From positions 1-14,635 of IMG/VR virus record IMGVR_UViG_2693429762_000010: a stretch of DNA of 14,635 bases; one strand, written 5' to 3'. The notes beneath the pieces were generated by a model. The model saw nothing but the letters and a program-made list of their open reading frames with translations, was not told where the DNA came from and did not search any database. A program made the translations under genes and the position numbers. Positions 1,284 through 14,349 of the stretch are shown one piece after another. How positions within the stretch are numbered: the first letter of the stretch is position 1; each line of letters starts with the position of its first letter. Origin of the DNA: a virus (taxonomy: Duplodnaviria > Heunggongvirae > Uroviricota > Caudoviricetes).

Positions 1284-1524
1284 CCAACCGCAGCACGTTC
1301 TTGCTTAAGACGTGCTGCGGCATAATCCCAATGATTACTCCCTGACAGGGTTCGTAGGCCACTCAATATCAGGTGCAGTTGATGTATCAACACGGTTCAG
1401 CAACACCCGATACTTTTTCCAGGCTTCCAGCAATGAGGTTTCTTCCTCCGTTGCAATTTCCAGATCTGCAGCATCCTGAAGCGGCGCAATATGCTCACTG
1501 GCTACCTGCATCAGGTTGTTTTTT
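1284..1524. repeat. direct repeat copy B (3' end of tfa plus downstream stem-loop)
   Basis: Partner of 236-475; the two copies bracket the methyltransferase gene. Confidence 0.7.
1288..1320. terminator. GC-rich stem-loop between convergent methyltransferase and tfa genes
   Basis: CCGCAGCACGTTCTT / AAGACGTGCTGCGG forms a ~14-bp stem with one bulge and a 4-nt loop, 8 nt after the methyltransferase stop and 15 nt after the tfa stop. No immediately adjacent U-tract on either strand, so terminator function is uncertain. Confidence 0.4.
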
Positions 1525-1919
1525 GTTTCTTCCGCCTCCCGGATCCGGAACATTTTTTCTGCTTCCGTATCCTTCACCCAGGCTGTGCCGTTCCACTTCT
1601 GAAACTCCCCTTCCGGCGATAACCAGGTAACATTTTCCGGTAACGGACCGAGTTCAGAAATAAATAACTCGTCCCCTGACGCTACGTCATAAACCGTTTT
1701 ACCCCGATGGTCTTCAACGAGATGCCACGATGCCTCATCACTGTTGAAAACAGCCACAAAGCCAGCAGGAATATCTGGTGGTGCAATATCGGTACTGTTT
1801 GCTGGCAGACCTGTATGAGGCGGAATATATGCGTCACCTTCACCAATAAATTCATTAGTTCCGGCCAGCAGATTATAAATTTTTATGGTCCGTGCTTGTT
1901 CACTCATTCTGAATGCCAT
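1335..1919 (-). CDS. tfa: tail fibre assembly protein Tfa (lambda Tfa / TfaE / TfaQ family)
   Basis: 194-aa ORF starting [39 protein letters not shown] and ending [11 protein letters not shown], closely matching remembered E. coli prophage Tfa proteins. Its ATG overlaps the stop of the upstream tail-fibre ORF (TAATG). Confidence 0.92.
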
Positions 1920-7618: not shown

Positions 7619-8077
7619 TTATTTCAGGCACTGAGTGCGGATATAGTCCTGTGCCCCTTCCAGTTGCTTGTGCATCGTCATCAGCCGCTCTCTGAGGGTG
7701 AAATAATCCCGTGTAACGGTGTCTGCCAGTTGGGGGCCGGTTGCATTATCCACGCCGGAGGTGGTGGGGGCTTCACGCACGGAGCCTGGACAGGTGGCGT
7801 TGATCCGCAGGCGCTTACGACCAGCGGCAACATCAGCGCGCAGAGTTTCATTTTCAGCTCTCGCATCGGATAATTCCCTCGAGTATTTTGCATCGAGCGC
7901 AGCAACATCGCGCTGGCGCACCTGCATATCAGTAATGGTTGCGTTCGCCAGCTTCAGTTCACTGGCTTTGTTATCGCGCTGCGCTTTGTAGGTAATCGCG
8001 TTATCACGGTAATGGTCTGTTGCCATCCACAGCGCACCACAGGCCACCAGCAGAATAACGATAAACGCGGAAAGCAT
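7619..8077 (-). CDS. Rz: i-spanin Rz
   Basis: N-terminal TM segment [17 protein letters not shown] followed by [45 protein letters not shown]…, aligning with lambda Rz. ATG at 8075-8077; an in-frame GTG at 8092 is an alternative start. Confidence 0.85.
7681..7866 (-). CDS. Rz1: o-spanin Rz1 lipoprotein embedded in the +1 frame of Rz
   Basis: [61 protein letters not shown] has lipobox VVSAC with Cys at position 20 and the proline-rich core, as in lambda Rz1. Confidence 0.8.
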
Positions 8078-8088
8078 TCGGTTTATGT

Positions 8089-8220
8089 TCACCCCAGCAA
8101 CCCCGACGAAGACAACATCATCCAGGCCATGGAAAGAAAAAGAGCAACCAGCATTAGTGAAAATGAAATGCCGACAATTACACAGAGGATCTTCGCCAGC
8201 GTTATGAGTTTGTCTGACAT
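8089..8220 (-). CDS. hypothetical small membrane protein (43 aa)
   Basis: [43 protein letters not shown], single predicted TM helix. Strong SD GGGAGGA 7 nt upstream; stop abuts the Rz start region. Confidence 0.4.
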
Positions 8221-8234
8221 GCTTAATCCTCCCT

Positions 8235-8417
8235 TCACGATTTCAACGCAATGACCAGTTTTGCCAGCCCATACAGCATCGGGGACACAGCAACACCGAC
8301 CGCCACCCACTTAATGGCAAAAGCCAGTGCTCTGCTGATGTCATCAGTTACAGGCGCTTTCAGTTCAAGGCCATTTTTCATAGTCAACCTCAACAGAATT
8401 CGTTTATACTTCGCCAT
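8235..8417 (-). CDS. hypothetical small membrane protein (60 aa; alternative start at 8381 gives 48 aa)
   Basis: [60 protein letters not shown]: charged N-terminus, C-terminal TM segment. AGGGAGA immediately upstream of the ATG at 8417. Confidence 0.4.
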
Positions 8418-8450
8418 GTTCTCCCTTGCCTTACTCAAGGTCAGAAACAC

Positions 8451-8483
8451 AAAACCCCGCTTGGTGCCAACAAACGGGGTTTT
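8451..8483. terminator. candidate bidirectional intrinsic terminator between endolysin and downstream small ORFs
   Basis: AAAACCCCG…CGGGGTTTT inverted repeat with a ~15-nt loop, flanked by T-runs on both strands (TTTTACTTTT on plus, TTTTGTGTTT on minus). Only a 5-bp GC core, so weak. Confidence 0.3.
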
Positions 8484-8573
8484 TACTTTTATTCACTTAC
8501 GTTTCGCCAGTTCGCAGGATTTCGTGTTATCCGCCCGCGTGGCCATACCTTATTTTTCAGCAAAATATTCTGC

Positions 8574-9107
8574 TTATCTGTCGATTCCCCAGCACGCCAG
8601 CGCGCTCTCCTGGTCACGACGGGATACCTGACCATAACAGTTATTTGAGCGGATACGGCAGTCTCTGCCACCGTCCTTAATCCACCAGCGAATCGCCTCA
8701 CACGCTCCCCTGCGGTCACCAGCATTCAGCCGCTTATAAAACGTCGACGGGAAACACTTACCGGGGCCAATGTTATAGGGACAGAATGACGCTATACCCG
8801 CTTTCTGTGGTTCGGTCAGTGGAACTTTAATATTGCGCTCCACCCATGCCAGCGCCTTATCCCGTTCAATGGCATTAACCTGGTCGCATTTTTCCTTCGA
8901 CAGTTTCATGCCCGGAATAACAGGTTTACCATCCACCATTGTGGCACCGCGGCAGATGGTCCAGATACCCGCACCATCACGGTATGCCGTTGTGTGGTTA
9001 CCTTCTTTTTCATCCAGAAACTGGTCGAGAATATCAGGCGCAGGCGCACCGATGGCAATCAACGCCAGAACGGCAGCCGACAGGCCATATTTGATTTTGG
9101 TGTTCAT
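8574..9107 (-). CDS. R: SAR endolysin (GH24 lysozyme R, phage 21 / 933W type)
   Basis: 177 aa. N-terminal Ala/Gly-rich signal-anchor-release segment LSAAVLALIAIGAPAP followed by DEKEGNHTTAYRDGAGIWTICRG carrying the E…D…T triad arrangement of T4-lysozyme-like enzymes. Confidence 0.9.
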   Translation of the reverse strand: MNTKIKYGLSAAVLALIAIGAPAPDILDQFLDEKEGNHTTAYRDGAGIWTICRGATMVDGKPVIPGMKLSKEKCDQVNAIERDKALAWVERNIKVPLTEPQKAGIASFCPYNIGPGKCFPSTFYKRLNAGDRRGACEAIRWWIKDGGRDCRIRSNNCYGQVSRRDQESALACWGIDR

Positions 9108-9163
9108 GGATATTTATCAGGATTTATCGGTTCCGAATCCCTGGATATGTTAAATCTTCAGCC

Positions 9164-9190
9164 CGCCAGCGGTAGGACACTGGCGTTTTT
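9164..9190 (+). terminator. small hairpin plus T5 tract upstream of the 104-aa plus-strand ORF
   Basis: CGCCAG-(10 nt)-CTGGCG followed by TTTTT on the plus strand. Modest 6-bp stem. Confidence 0.25.
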
Positions 9191-9235
9191 CCTGATGGCT
9201 GAAATATATCTGACAATTTCAGTAGAGGATTAACC

Positions 9236-9550
9236 ATGCATAACGATCAACATAATTATGATTTATGCCTGCAAGCCATAAATGAGCGGGTAAAATCAGA
9301 GTGCCTCTTACTCCTCCCACAAGAACACGATGCAGTAAAATCCATTCAGGCTGAGCCGTATGGACATCTCACACCTGTGACTCTCGGCATTATCGCCAGA
9401 GCATTAACACAGCCCATGCTTATGCGTATTAAGACCAATATAAATAACTGGTTGAATGAAGAATTAAGCTACCTTGATTGTGAGTGGGACAATCATTACG
9501 CAAAAACACAAAAAGAACGCATCTTCAGTCGATTATCCAGCAACAGATAA
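9236..9550 (+). CDS. hypothetical protein (104 aa), opposite strand to the lysis genes
   Basis: ORF MHNDQHNYDLCLQAINERVKSECLLLLPQEHDAVKSIQAEPYGH… with good SD GAGGA 7 nt upstream. No motif recognised. Its stop lies 9 bp from the stop of the convergent 268-aa gene. Confidence 0.55.
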   Translation: MHNDQHNYDLCLQAINERVKSECLLLLPQEHDAVKSIQAEPYGHLTPVTLGIIARALTQPMLMRIKTNINNWLNEELSYLDCEWDNHYAKTQKERIFSRLSSNR

Positions 9551-9559
9551 CGAGCCACC

Positions 9560-10366
9560 TTATATACGCCCTTTCAGATAAGTCATCCCCGGCTGCATCC
9601 AGTCAACAGGTGCTTTCTTAAAGGGCGTATTATCAAAATCACGCAGAAGAGCCTCCAGCACAACTGCATCATTGTCAGCACCACTGGCCATCATTTCAAT
9701 CTCAGCTGCTACCTGCAGATATCCCATGCAACGACCAATGCGCTTCATCAGCCCCTGCTTTTTATTGTTCTTCAGGTAATCAATGGCAAATTCAATGAGC
9801 GCCTCACTATGCTGGTGCGATGGCGGTGTTAATTTCCCATTTTCTGAGATGGTTATTTTCCCGCCATCTCCGTATACAACAAAGGATGGCCGGTTACACT
9901 CCCATTCCTGATCTTTATCAGGTGCAGACGCAATAAAATAACGTTTATTTCCTTCCTCTCCGGCACTTTTAACCGTAATGGAGTACTCAGACTGCAGACA
10001 AGACGCCTCTTTTTCTGACCGCAGTGTTGACGGCGGCATCTTCAGAGAACCAGTAATTCTTCCCGGTAGCTTTCCTTTGTAGGTTATCAACACATCCTGC
10101 GCCTCTAAAATTATGGGGCGCTTTTCCGGCAACGGTTCGTTCCCTTCACATAACCCGGCAGCAACATCCATGAAAAACTGCTTCGCCTGCTTTTTCGCCT
10201 CAGCTTCGTAAAACTCCAGCGTGGCACCTTCAGTACGGTCAAGACTAATCGCCACATTTGGCAACAACAGTGACGGATACCCACCAATTTCCAGTACCAC
10301 AGTAACAGTAATCTTATCCGGGTAATTATTTATCCCTTTAACAACCAGTTCGTATTTTTTCTTCAT
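9560..10366 (-). CDS. hypothetical protein (268 aa) inserted between holin and endolysin
   Basis: Long ORF starting 4 nt after the holin stop, with GGGGAGAG SD inside the holin 3' end (translational coupling). Soluble, Lys/Glu-rich, no TM segments, no Walker or other catalytic motif recognised. Confidence 0.7.
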   Translation of the reverse strand: MKKKYELVVKGINNYPDKITVTVVLEIGGYPSLLLPNVAISLDRTEGATLEFYEAEAKKQAKQFFMDVAAGLCEGNEPLPEKRPIILEAQDVLITYKGKLPGRITGSLKMPPSTLRSEKEASCLQSEYSITVKSAGEEGNKRYFIASAPDKDQEWECNRPSFVVYGDGGKITISENGKLTPPSHQHSEALIEFAIDYLKNNKKQGLMKRIGRCMGYLQVAAEIEMMASGADNDAVVLEALLRDFDNTPFKKAPVDWMQPGMTYLKGRI

Positions 10367-10370
10367 CGCT

Positions 10371-10586
10371 TTACTCTCCCCGCGCCGCCTTACGCCGGTC
10401 CTCTCTGATTTTGAAATACAGGTTAGTCAGATATGTCAGCAGCCCAAACAGCAGACTCCCCAGCACGCCTATTGCCGCCCACTGAGACGGGGAAACCCTG
10501 TCCAGCAACTGCAGGAACCAGTAGCCCGTTCCCACCGCTGACGTGGTGTATGACACACCTGTTGTGATTTTTTCCATCTGGTACAT
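10371..10586 (-). CDS. S: pinholin S (S21 / 933W S family), dual-start
   Basis: 71 aa: [71 protein letters not shown], two TM segments and a charged C-terminus. Met1 and Met4 give the usual antiholin/holin dual start. The ORF-track N-terminal extension to 10691 is not part of the protein. Confidence 0.9.
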
Positions 10587-10621: not shown

Positions 10622-10650
10622 AAAAAAGCCACCAGTTAAGTACTGATGGC
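10622..10650 (-). terminator. rho-independent terminator downstream of nanS-p
   Basis: On the minus strand GCCATCAG-(7-nt loop)-CTGGTGGC (8-bp stem with one G.U pair) followed directly by TTTTTTATT. Lies between the nanS-p stop (10736) and the holin start (10586). Confidence 0.5.
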
Positions 10651-10735
10651 TCTGATAACTCATGCAGGCATCTCAGACGACCCACTGACACTACCGGTGA
10701 GTTTAACGATACCTTCCATTTGACTGGCTCACTTT

Positions 10736-12589
10736 TTATGATGATGCTGGTGCATTTATCTCCAGCACCAGACTTTCTATCTCAACGCCATACGCTGCAT
10801 TTTTGGTAATATCCGTCAGCGTCAGCGCATTCAGCCCCAGTGTCAGACTGTCTTTTATGACCTGGAATGCCGGGCCAGCCACTCCATTCAGTTTCGGAGT
10901 AACCGTGGCACTGCCGGCGGTGAACACCAGCTCCAGCGTCTGCCAGTCGTTACTGTAATTCCCGAACTCGCCCAACTTTGTGTTTCCTGCTTTCCTGTGA
11001 TGCATCAGATTCAGTTTGCCGTCTGTGGTCTGGGTGAAGAACGACATCAGGAACGGGTTACCAGTCCCGGTCATCGCCACGACGTCAGGTAACGCTACAT
11101 CGGTATACAGATAAATTCCCAGACCGAACTGGTTGTTGGTCAGTGCGCCTGACAGTCGAAACTTACAGCTCAGTCTGCCACCCCGTGTCAGCAGGGAGAC
11201 TGCGTCATCCACCGGGCGCGTCAGGGACCAGGCTTTATTGCTCTGCTTGGCGATCTTAAATACACCACCCGACAACTGAATTCCGCCGTCCTTAATGGTC
11301 CAGCCCTGCGCAGCAGCCTCTCCGGCTGTCGGCAGCAGGGAGATTGTGCGAACGGACGTATCTGCAGACGGACCCGATGGCGTGTCGCCGCCGGGCGAGG
11401 GTTTGATTTCCGGTGCCTTACCACTGATGAAGGCTGAGGTGCGCCCGGCTACGTTCAGAATAGCAGTTGCCATACGATCGGGAATAATGCCACGACGCGC
11501 CCATGAGCTGAAATGCGTCGGGCGATTTGATGATACCCAGTTTTTGTTCGTTCGGGATGCCGAACCGTAATAACCAGACCCGGCAATATCAGGATCTTCT
11601 GACGGGTTGTTTGTCGGTGTATTAACTCCGCTACCATCGGTCATAAAGGGAACAAAATAAATCTGCTGGGATTCTTTACCTTTATATGCACCATATACCA
11701 CTTCATATTGCGTACCGTGTTCTTGTTTCCACGCGTATGTCGTGTCGCCACAAATCCAGGGGACTGATGCCGGACTTCCACCGTGACACTGCGCTGCCAG
11801 CCCGGCAAGGTCAGCACGGAACTGCTGTACCATTGCAAGAAATGCTGCTGGCTGCTGGGCGTAACTGGCATTCGTCATATCGAATTCCCCCTGCATCCAG
11901 CATATCGCCAGCAAAACGTTTTTCGGGTTTTTCTGCAATGCTGCCTTCGTGCGGAAAAGCAGATCCTGATATAACGGCTTACCCACTCCCCAGCGAGCCG
12001 AATCCTGACTGGCCCCCGTGGACTCGCTGAATGTCCCCTCCGTGCCCTGGGTGAATGCCGAACCACCACGACAGCATGGTACCAGCAGGATCCCCGCATT
12101 ATTAGGGATATACGGAAGCAGTTTTTTGGCAATATGTAAGCCCTGGCCGACACAGCCGTACTGCCCTTTGCTCAGGTCAGCCCGGGGATGGTTAATCGTA
12201 CTCATATCCTGAACATCATGCAGACAATGGTCAGCAGGAATGATGTCGTTAAATACGCATACTTCACCACCGGGAGTCACTGTGTTACGACGGGCCAGTT
12301 GCTTAATGCGCGGATGGGGCGCATCGTATGAATCCGGAAGCGGAAGCCCTTCACCGTAAGCCATGGCATTGGACTGCCCGGCCAGTACGATGACGTAGTA
12401 CCACTCCGGCTCAGTTGCACCACTGACGACCACATCACCTTCTGCTGCAATCGCCTGCATCAGGGTATAAGGGGTTATGGCCACCGGACTACCAAACGGC
12501 TGCCAGCCCTCTTTCAGTTTATGTGTCAGCTTTTCCGCAAGATCTGACGGCGACGCCGCCCTGACAACATCATAGTGTTTAAATGCCAT
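10736..12589 (-). CDS. nanS: prophage sialate O-acetylesterase NanS-p (DUF1737 N-terminal domain plus SGNH/SASA esterase)
   Basis: 617-622 aa. Starts [22 protein letters not shown]…; esterase block [13 protein letters not shown] (GQSN nucleophile motif). Matches remembered NanS-p proteins found between stx/tRNAs and the lysis genes in EHEC prophages. Start placed at the second ATG (GGAAAG SD); the first ATG at 12604 lacks an SD. Confidence 0.88.
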
Positions 12590-12849
12590 GGTTCTTTCCA
12601 CCATCTGAAAAATGATTCTTTAAAATACCTGACATGTAATACAGAAAAAACACAAAACCATACCTTAATTAAAAACCTCATCATCAAGCAGATATGCATG
12701 GATAAACTACAAGACGAGATATAAACCACCCTGCATTTAAATAAACAATAAACAACATCAGAAAAATAATTCTGCTCTATGGTTTACAATCAAAAATATC
12801 ATTTATACTTTTCAGAACATCACCAGCAAGGCATAAACAAGGAAACTAA

Positions 12850-13185: not shown

Positions 13186-13220
13186 GGAGTTTACTCACAT
13201 CTGACAAAATCAATATAAAC

Positions 13221-13240
13221 AGCCCCTCCGGAGAGGGGCT
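13221..13240. terminator. perfect 8-bp GC-rich stem-loop (AGCCCCTC-CGGA-GAGGGGCT)
   Basis: 35 nt after the 111-aa ORF stop. A U-rich tract follows on the minus strand only (GTTTATATTGATTTTG), so it is more plausibly a minus-strand terminator or an RNA-stabilising hairpin. Confidence 0.3.
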
Positions 13241-13632
13241 GGAGAGTGGCGCTATGTGCCATTGCATGGTGCCGGGTGCCTCCCGGTGAATTCAGTACCA
13301 GCACCTGAATCCGCGATTATCCCATATACCTACTCGCTGATTGCCCCTCCGCACAGGGGGATTCACCATGCCAGTTTCTTTTAACAAACTCCCCGCAAAC
13401 CAGACAACAGTCAACCGCCTGAATTGTGAAGTATTTAAAAATTTCTCCCGCTAACTGATACCCGGCTAACAGTCTGGCGTTTTCTTTTTCAGCAACGGGA
13501 AAGCAGCAACCACCACACCCGCCACCAGCACACCGTCAGCCAGCACTGACATTATCCGGCTGCTGCAATGCCATTCACAAAAACAGTAAGCAATCACTTT
13601 TTACCGTAACCGGTGATAATCCAGATATGTAT

Positions 13633-14096: not shown

Positions 14097-14173
14097 TGGC
14101 GCGCTGTACTGGATTCGAACCAGTGACCGATTGCTTAGAAGGCAATTGCTCTGTCCGGCTGAGCTAACAACGC
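14097..14173 (-). tRNA. tRNA-Arg (anticodon UCU)
   Basis: Minus strand GCGTTGTTAGCTCAGCCGGACAGAGCAATTGCCTTCTAAGCAATCGGTCACTGGTTCGAATCCAGTACAGCGCGCCA: 7-bp acceptor stem, D-arm, anticodon loop CUUCUAA, T-loop GGTTCGAATCC, encoded CCA. Resembles argU-type and Stx-phage arg tRNAs. Confidence 0.9.
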
Positions 14174-14273: not shown

Positions 14274-14349
14274 TGGTGGCCCTTGCTGGATTTGAACCAG
14301 CGACCTGGCGATTATGAGTCGCTCGCTCTCACCACTGAGCTAAAGGGCC
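14274..14349 (-). tRNA. tRNA-Ile2 (anticodon CAU, ileX/ileZ-like, reads AUA after lysidine modification)
   Basis: Minus strand GGCCCTTTAGCTCAGTGGTGAGAGCGAGCGACTCATAATCGCCAGGTCGCTGGTTCAAATCCAGCAAGGGCCACCA: full cloverleaf, anticodon CAU. Much closer to remembered E. coli ileX than to elongator tRNA-Met. Confidence 0.88.

Follow-up and report, generated by a model that had tools for sequence, protein, structure and literature searches.

The window, i.e., the whole 14,635-nucleotide (nt) stretch of viral DNA analysed here, whose numbering is used below unless another locus is named, carries a lysis cassette in which two convergent genes lie between a phage-21-type pinholin and a signal-anchor-release (SAR) endolysin. 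These genes encode proteins of 268 and 104 amino acids (aa), the latter called p104 in the following. The reading that we favour, with even confidence, is that they are two separate transcription units and that the region represents one instance of a recurrent accessory cassette with three parts, namely a YdfR-family late protein, a separately transcribed moron on the opposite strand, and a short conserved element ahead of the moron. The pair had been singled out in an earlier note on this DNA; the observation is confirmed, and the interpretation given there is partly supported.

What speaks for this reading? Upstream of the cassette lies the STnc100 RNA, which we take to be the short leader transcript of a late promoter, and the genes that follow on the same strand are all co-oriented with it. 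If so, a late promoter would stand upstream of the whole minus-strand operon, and therefore the esterase, the holin, the 268-aa gene, the endolysin and Rz would all belong to the late operon. The slot between the holin gene (S) and the endolysin gene (R) is occupied by a YdfR-family gene in 73/73 sampled E. coli phage-21-type cassettes, while S and R are adjacent in other genera. Both slot genes are low in G+C. The element ahead of p104 is invariant in its core among 13 copies, occurs with 12 unrelated cargo families, and is linked to cargo: its promoter-like segment is present in 28/28 slots with a genuine reverse gene vs 1/45 without, where the 45 include 21 slots whose sole reverse open reading frame (ORF) is antisense to the C-terminal domain of the YdfR-family protein and was discounted as an artefact. 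Moreover, nine of the 12 forward (late-strand) partners of these cargo genes fall into one BLASTP network with the 268-aa protein and K-12 YdfR; the remaining three, short and coiled-coil, begin with MTLEQRV. Finally, the 268-aa protein matches PF07041 and shares its position with YdfR of the K-12 prophage Qin, for which RNase E and RNA data have been published (PMC13232886).

The features of the cassette are listed here in the order of the late operon, with the STnc100 RNA first:

13211-13400, minus strand: STnc100 RNA (Rfam RF02076, 132 bits)
10736-12604, minus strand: SASA/DUF1737 esterase, first gene of the lysis cassette
10371-10586, minus strand: phage-21-type class II holin, i.e., the pinholin S (PF04971, E 9e-33; phrog_9876 and phrog_20, holin; MYQM dual-start motif)
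9560-10366, minus strand: 268-aa long-form YdfR-family gene (PF07041; the function-unknown phrog_1085 over its full length)
10133-10366, minus strand: N-terminal DUF1327 domain of the 268-aa protein, aa 1-78 (modelled as three strands, then a helix)
9563-9892, minus strand: conserved C-terminal domain of the 268-aa protein, aa 159-268 (17 invariant columns)
9236-9550, plus strand: 104-aa cargo gene p104, on the opposite strand (phrog_1853)
9112-9238, plus strand: promoter-like/leader element of ~125 nt (covariance model, 102.9 bits)
8574-9107, minus strand: SAR-type lysozyme R, the endolysin (PF00959; phrog_7, endolysin)
7619-8092, minus strand: Rz, last gene of the lysis cassette

Inspection of the ORFs of the window places every cassette feature on the minus strand save the 104-aa ORF. 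The start codon of the 268-aa gene follows the holin stop after 4 nt (TAA-AGCG-ATG), with its Shine-Dalgarno (SD) sequence GGGGAGAG within the 3' end of the holin gene; the stops of the two convergent ORFs leave 9 nt between them (9551-9559); and p104 has GAGGA 6 nt ahead of its ATG and a hairpin with a T5 tract further upstream. In all of this, the geometry first described for the pair proved exact. The G+C content is 41-49% for the slot genes, with p104 at 41%; the genes for holin, R, Rz and esterase have 53-55%.

By sequence criteria, both ORFs are real genes. Between diverged alleles, the 104-aa ORF has a ratio of nonsynonymous to synonymous substitution rates (dN/dS) of 0.27-0.45; the ratio is 0.24-0.30 in the 3' part of the 268-aa ORF, which encodes the C-terminal part of the protein. 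Each of the five alternative frames contains 5-10 stops; four of them give values of 0.8-2.7, and one reverse frame comes close to the coding frame (0.38-0.52) but has 6 stops. The length of 104 aa is constant among alleles down to 71% identity, and the exact sequences of both proteins are found on hundreds of public contigs, as 'hypothetical protein' and 'YdfR family protein'.

With regard to the 268-aa protein, PF07041 (DUF1327) covers aa 1-100 with 147.2 bits against a curated cut-off of 25, and aa 1-78 are 44% identical to K-12 YdfR. The claim that neither protein has a motif that can be placed is therefore untenable for this one, and it holds for p104. The homologues are highly mosaic and combine the DUF1327 domain, a 'PEKRPIILEAQDV...' segment, an optional coiled coil, and a C-terminal domain of ~110 aa. 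When aa 119-268 were used as a query against 1.84 billion representative proteins, 21 relatives were recovered, some of them 31-45% identical and of the same overall architecture. The C-terminal domain is characterized by the motifs HxH, GRxMGxLQxAAExE, DFDNPPFK and WxxPGxxYLK, its 17 invariant columns being kept among homologues down to 32% identity, and it also occurs without DUF1327, e.g., in 213-aa proteins. Set against the description of YdfR as a small single-domain protein of ~100-115 aa, the window protein is a long-form variant with an extra C-terminal domain. It is soluble, without a transmembrane segment (maximum 19-residue hydropathy 1.31), and its structure model has a predicted local distance difference test score (pLDDT) of ~68-88 over the N-terminal domain and is poor elsewhere. 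A profile of the C-terminal domain gave no match below E 0.02 among PDB sequences. Two other leads were discarded: aa 130-182 weakly and repeatedly match Ig-like repeat proteins (E 1e-5 to 3e-4), which was judged likely compositional, and the alternative 'C305' C-terminus of some YdfR forms is not a domain but read-through antisense to a 210-aa reverse gene.

The annotation of this family is a subject of its own. RefSeq calls intact long-form YdfR genes truncated pseudogenes (e.g., locus L120, 6325-7131, from O104:H4 2011C-3493, and locus L121, 2497-3390, from sequence type 131, ST131), and in many genomes the region of the C-terminal domain has no annotated feature at all. Since the family model is short, the label 'missing C-terminus' is an annotation artefact.

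The only biochemical data on a relative come from K-12, where residues 1-72 of YdfR bind the catalytic half of RNase E (residues 1-597) in two-hybrid and pull-down experiments and the protein co-purifies with RNA (PMC13232886). By homology, the N-terminal domain of the 268-aa protein is likely to dock on the catalytic half of RNase E, to bind RNA, or to do both.

As for p104, it has no match in Pfam, NCBIfam or PADLOC, and among PHROGs only the function-unknown family phrog_1853 is found. The AlphaFold2 model is a five-helix bundle (pLDDT 88; predicted template modelling score 0.81), and the protein is soluble, without a transmembrane segment (maximum 19-residue hydropathy 1.16). Its relatives form 13 clusters, all of them from E. 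coli. In 41/41 IMG/VR loci with such a relative, the C-terminal domain of the forward gene adjoins it in convergent orientation, while the N-terminal part of the forward gene varies (52-100% identity) or, as the 213-aa forms show, is missing. Neither slot protein matches any known family of lysis, defence or toxin proteins in Pfam, NCBIfam, PADLOC or PHROGs; for the defence and toxin-antitoxin models of PADLOC and NCBIfam nothing appears at E up to 1, and Pfam gives none. Neither protein has the membrane anchor, signal sequence or lipobox by which an antiholin, a spanin or a releasin would be recognized. Fold searches with predicted structures, which the earlier note had proposed as a check, returned no specific match for either of them.

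The element ahead of p104 is composed of the following parts:

9123-9129, plus strand: -35-like sequence
9146-9151, plus strand: -10-like TATGTT (T-A-n-n-n-T, invariant in 13 copies)
9157-9163, plus strand: TTCAGCC (invariant in 13 copies)
9164-9185, plus strand: hairpin CGCCAGCGGTAGGACACTGGCG (stems invariant in 13 copies)
9186-9190, plus strand: T5 tract directly after the hairpin
9197-9202, plus strand: GGCTGA, near-invariant, which can pair with TTCAGCC
9195-9233, plus strand: upstream ORF (uORF) of 12 codons (MAEIYLTISVED), beginning at the conserved ATGGCTGA, with its stop 2 nt ahead of the p104 ATG
9225-9229, plus strand: SD sequence GAGGA for p104

The hairpin with its T5 tract had been noticed before as a feature standing alone; it is indeed present, but it belongs to a conserved element of ~125 nt. 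Within the window the hairpin occurs once (0/200 shuffles). Thirteen distinct copies of the element can be aligned over ~125 nt, two of them with flanks that are otherwise unalignable, and in all of them TAnnnT stands at a fixed distance before TTCAGCC and the hairpin, oriented toward the cargo gene, with the SD and start codon of the cargo at a similar short distance downstream. A covariance model built on it has one match in the window, scores mostly 52-119 bits at cargo loci (36-45 bits at three), and finds two cargo-less cassettes with a short ydfR (BP-4795-type) at 32-39 bits; K-12 Qin, the non-Escherichia cassettes and the remaining cargo-less cassettes that were searched, of the ST131 type and of a second type with a short ydfR, give no match. 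In Rfam 15 nothing reaches the gathering score for the element, the best E-value on 9080-9260 being 8. As to the small uORF, it is fused in frame to p104 in one allele (L171), giving a 118-aa ORF, and with other cargo types ORFs of 3-9 codons begin at the same ATGGCTGAT.

How common is this arrangement, and how much of it is constant? Among 74 loci with an S21-type holin (one genome per species), ~30 from non-Escherichia genera (Enterobacter, Kluyvera, Kosakonia, Phytobacter, Klebsiella, Raoultella, and others) show S and R side by side, and 11 carry a YdfR-type insert, all from Escherichia, Shigella or mis-binned contigs of such. Relative to this basic S21-R21 cassette, the two genes are extra, as had been proposed. 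The picture of a single unprecedented insertion is, on the other hand, not borne out: YdfR/DUF1327 is the regular occupant of the slot in E. coli, and in K-12 Qin, cited earlier as a case of a holin placed directly before the endolysin, the order is essQ, a 4-nt gap, ydfR and rrrQ. Each of 73 IMG/VR loci whose R is at least 94% identical has its slot filled; the slot measures 399-1316 nt and shows at least 10 architectures. The comparison with related prophages thus leaves only the C-terminal domain and the 104-aa gene as the rarer additions to a gene found in every sampled E. coli slot. Of 5426 complete E. coli genomes, 3148 match part of 9108-10370, 787 have the C-terminal domain, and 95 the p104 gene.

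The entire arrangement is present, 97% identical, in the Stx2-converting phage 86. A non-Stx prophage of the O104:H4 outbreak strain has an identical p104 gene and a nearly identical 268-aa protein, the ORF being intact in 2011C-3493. ST131 has a long form of 296 aa without a reverse gene; there, compared with window positions 9108-9160, the cassette (L121, 2461-2500) is without ~35 nt that bear the promoter-like part and are flanked by GGATAT direct repeats, which looks like a deletion footprint. With respect to BP-4795, where R comes directly after a short ydfR, the window has extra DNA at ~9186-10037, and the last codons of that ydfR are the counterpart of the left hairpin arm. When viral contigs were scanned for two distant homologues, one of them was found at a single locus and the other nowhere.

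Counting p104, six alternative and unrelated small cargo genes are found in E. coli prophages at a fixed position, the R-proximal end of the S-R slot. The five others, each with a good SD sequence, are:

L146, 2623-2895, minus strand: 90-aa reverse gene
L184, 2600-2875, minus strand: 91-aa reverse gene
L197, 2516-2833, minus strand: 105-aa reverse gene
L168, 2212-2844, minus strand: 210-aa reverse gene
L173, 2627-2887, minus strand: 86-aa reverse gene

These genes are related neither to one another nor to p104. The hairpin and TTCAGCC precede the 86-, 91-, 105- and 210-aa genes, and the promoter-like part alone precedes the 90-aa gene. None of the slot cargo genes gives a confident match to defence models, the best being a partial one of the 105-aa protein to the PADLOC candidate PDC-S51 (E 1e-5). 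Reverse ORFs of 79-84 aa that lie wholly within the coding region of the C-terminal domain were rejected as antisense artefacts. The slot is a hotspot inside the lysis cassette and antisense to it.

The element is also found elsewhere. Of the 31 IMG/VR loci with the exact hairpin pattern, ~20 have no lysis genes nearby, and the five inspected are tail-gene regions; in L285, L286, L293 and L297, for instance, tape-measure-like tail genes on one side and gpM/gpL-like ones on the other enclose the element and a convergent gene pair. The cassette is thus not confined to lysis regions. In a prophage of Salmonella enterica subsp. diarizonae, a distant homologue of the C-terminal domain is followed by a convergent DUF1883 gene (L281, 4651-4941, minus strand) behind the same hairpin, before an HP1-type holin. 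Further upstream in that prophage, after Q, there is a ParE toxin/helix-turn-helix pair, and DUF1883 is listed in the legend of a review figure among the domains of TIR-containing proteins (PMC9153377). Over the loci collected, at least 12 unrelated cargo families stand behind the element.

How might such a cassette work? According to the favoured reading, the 268-aa gene would be expressed from the late operon, translated in step with the holin, and its product would be soluble and cytoplasmic. Its DUF1327 domain would dock on the catalytic half of RNase E and/or on RNA, and the C-terminal domain would add a further activity. On the opposite strand, p104 would be an AT-rich moron transcribed from a conserved sigma-70-like promoter of its own, the -10 being 9146-9151. 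The mRNA would start near 9157, so that the hairpin would form its 5' end as a conserved GC leader. With such a promoter, p104 could be expressed while the late operon is silent, i.e., in the lysogen, and after induction strong antisense read-through from the late operon would presumably shut it off. The suggestion that an opposite-strand gene must have its own promoter finds support in the conserved promoter-like element, although the generic scan and the weak -35 do not bear it out.

Several findings weigh against this reading. A generic sigma-70 promoter/terminator scan of the plus strand returned nothing relevant, and the best hit of a relaxed scan was 7/12 with a weak -35. The hairpin and T5 tract, just past the predicted start, look like a terminator and could abort the transcript. 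RNAalifold found covariation at 1/17 pairs only, so that an RNA structure is plausible rather than demonstrated, and the hairpin of the window allele has a C-A mismatch on the cargo strand where the late strand has a U-G wobble. As for the proteins, the identity between the 268-aa protein and K-12 YdfR is only 44%, overproduction of K-12 YdfR changed few transcripts (PMC13232886), and the fold searches were null for both.

Could the C-terminal domain of the 268-aa protein and p104 instead be functional partners, e.g., effector and antidote or sensor and regulator, whose convergent layout keeps them co-inherited and sets their ratio via antisense interference? The constant neighbourhood of the two in the 41 IMG/VR loci beside a variable N-terminal part, their similar divergence (synonymous rates, dS, of 0.43-0.52 vs 0.34-0.48) and the small convergent gene behind the same hairpin in Salmonella would fit such a partnership. 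However, the genes are 9 nt apart, and because of this linkage alone can account for the co-occurrence. The domain is also found in 787 genomes and p104 in just 95, the 296-aa form of ST131 goes without a reverse gene, and other reverse cargo is found where the forward gene lacks the domain, the 90-aa gene being paired with a short YdfR and the 86- and 91-aa genes with truncated forms. The pair matches none of the toxin-antitoxin or defence models, and we regard this explanation as unlikely, though worth keeping in mind.

A somewhat less probable alternative is that the element acts on the late transcript, as a processing or stability site or in the translational control of the next late gene, and not as promoter and leader of the cargo. 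Everywhere the element is directly ahead of the next late gene, be it R, an HP1-type holin or a gpM-like tail gene; the stem variant of the window pairs (U-G) on the late strand only; and a weaker copy is kept in the cargo-less BP-4795-type cassettes. Such a role would leave unexplained the tie of the promoter-like segment to cargo, the invariant TAnnnT that points toward the cargo gene, and the cargo SD sequences and starts that follow at a similar short distance; moreover, the element is missing from non-Escherichia cassettes and from those of the ST131 type, which express the same R.

Rather improbable, in our judgement, is a role of one protein or both in lysis control, by which pinholin triggering or the release of the SAR endolysin would be tuned. 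Neither of them has a transmembrane segment or signal sequence, the S21-R21 cassettes of other genera work without such a gene, the reverse cargo genes at the site are mutually unrelated, and cassettes of this type are also found at a distance from the S-R junction, in tail clusters and ahead of an HP1-type holin. These facts have to be set against the position within the lysis cassette, the translational coupling to the holin, which is conserved in Qin, and a genetic screen, cited in PMC13232886, that linked ydfR to envelope integrity. Lastly, that the 268-aa frame is a decaying pseudogene and the 104-aa ORF a chance ORF is hardly credible and is regarded as already refuted: the RefSeq tag 'incomplete; missing C-terminus' in O104:H4 and ST131 is countered by the intact ORFs of those genomes, by purifying selection in the coding frame (compared with four of the five other frames), by the constant length and confident model of p104, and by the conservation of the C-terminal domain down to 32% identity.

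Returning to the favoured reading of two transcription units in an accessory cassette, it can be extended to a self-silencing switch, a speculation in which we place little confidence. The conserved promoter and hairpin leader would express a cargo of the lysogenic phase (defence, exclusion or host-modifying), and the leader RNA of this cargo would be recognized by the YdfR-family protein, made from the late operon only, and handed to RNase E. In this way the prophage would turn off its own cargo on entering lytic growth. Such a switch would account for the fact that unrelated cargo genes keep the same leader and mostly a YdfR-related forward partner, both in lysis and in tail regions.

The surroundings of the cassette deserve a few words. 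Upstream of the esterase, on the same strand as the STnc100 RNA, are tRNA-Arg(tct) (14097-14173, minus strand) and tRNA-Met(cat) (14274-14349, minus strand); the order of STnc100 and the tRNAs is the layout found downstream of Q in prophages of the Shiga toxin (Stx) type, and there is no gene of the size of stxA here, since the stretch from the tRNAs to the esterase has no ORF of at least 90 aa. On the late strand there are two hairpins that carry T runs and resemble terminators, one between esterase and holin (10625-10653, minus strand) and one just past the endolysin (8451-8483, minus strand); late transcription would therefore need antitermination to get through. The interval between R and Rz (8093-8573) is a second variable slot, with small ORFs such as 8235-8450 (minus strand, 71 aa) in the window, an ant gene in phage 86 and BP-4795, and two small hypothetical genes in O104:H4. 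At 1378-1576 (minus strand), in or beside the ORF 1335-1919, Rfam IS009 is matched over its full length with 224 bits. Since the best E. coli matches to the whole window start only at ~2845, its left end is a different segment of the mosaic.

How much of this is new? The 268-aa gene belongs, as a long form, to a family that is known and annotated though uncharacterised, and is an ordinary occupant of its slot in E. coli, and the 104-aa gene is already known as a 'hypothetical protein'. In the literature on DUF1327, YdfR, phage 86, lysis-cassette morons and lambdoid hotspots, no study of the gene pair was found. Likewise, the literature searched held no description of the recurrent cassette, i.e., a YdfR-related gene, a convergent variable cargo and an invariant element in the lysis and tail regions of enterobacterial temperate phages.

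YdfR-family genes are present in prophage lysis cassettes of more than half of the complete E. coli genomes, including K-12, O157, O104:H4 and ST131, and the sole functional lead on the family is the 2026 report that K-12 YdfR binds RNase E. The window shows the family to be modular, with a second conserved domain that is often mislabelled as a pseudogene in annotation. Further gains are a list of at least 12 uncharacterised small phage proteins as candidates in screens for defence or exclusion phenotypes, a short stretch of DNA with a putative promoter/leader function that is directly testable, and a concrete hypothesis that joins a phage late protein, RNase E and the control of prophage accessory genes.

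Among known systems, the closest is YdfR of K-12 Qin (b1555; PF07041), with which the window protein shares the Pfam family, the slot between a class II holin and a lysozyme, and the 4-nt gap after the holin stop. The K-12 protein has 103 aa and its gene overlaps rrrQ, whereas the window protein has 268 aa with a linker and a C-terminal domain of ~110 aa; the convergent gene and the conserved element, both present in the window, are missing from Qin; and binding to RNase E has been shown for the K-12 protein only.

Phage proteins that target RNase E include T4 Srd, phiKZ Dip and T7 gp0.7. Like these, the window protein is encoded by a phage and its closest characterised relative, K-12 YdfR, binds RNase E, but no relation to them was found in sequence or in fold, and even K-12 YdfR is not known to alter RNase E activity.

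Finally, morons are extra genes with their own promoter or terminator between conserved late genes, such as bor and lom of lambda and gene 15 of HK97. In the same way, p104 is an added gene that separates neighbours lying side by side in related phages, is lower in G+C and has a promoter-like sequence of its own, and like lambda bor it is opposite in strand to the late operon. It differs from them in that no terminator-like site follows it after 9550 on the plus strand, the hairpin and T5 tract standing upstream instead, and in that one invariant upstream element of ~125 nt serves at least 12 unrelated cargo genes, mostly together with a convergent YdfR-related forward gene.

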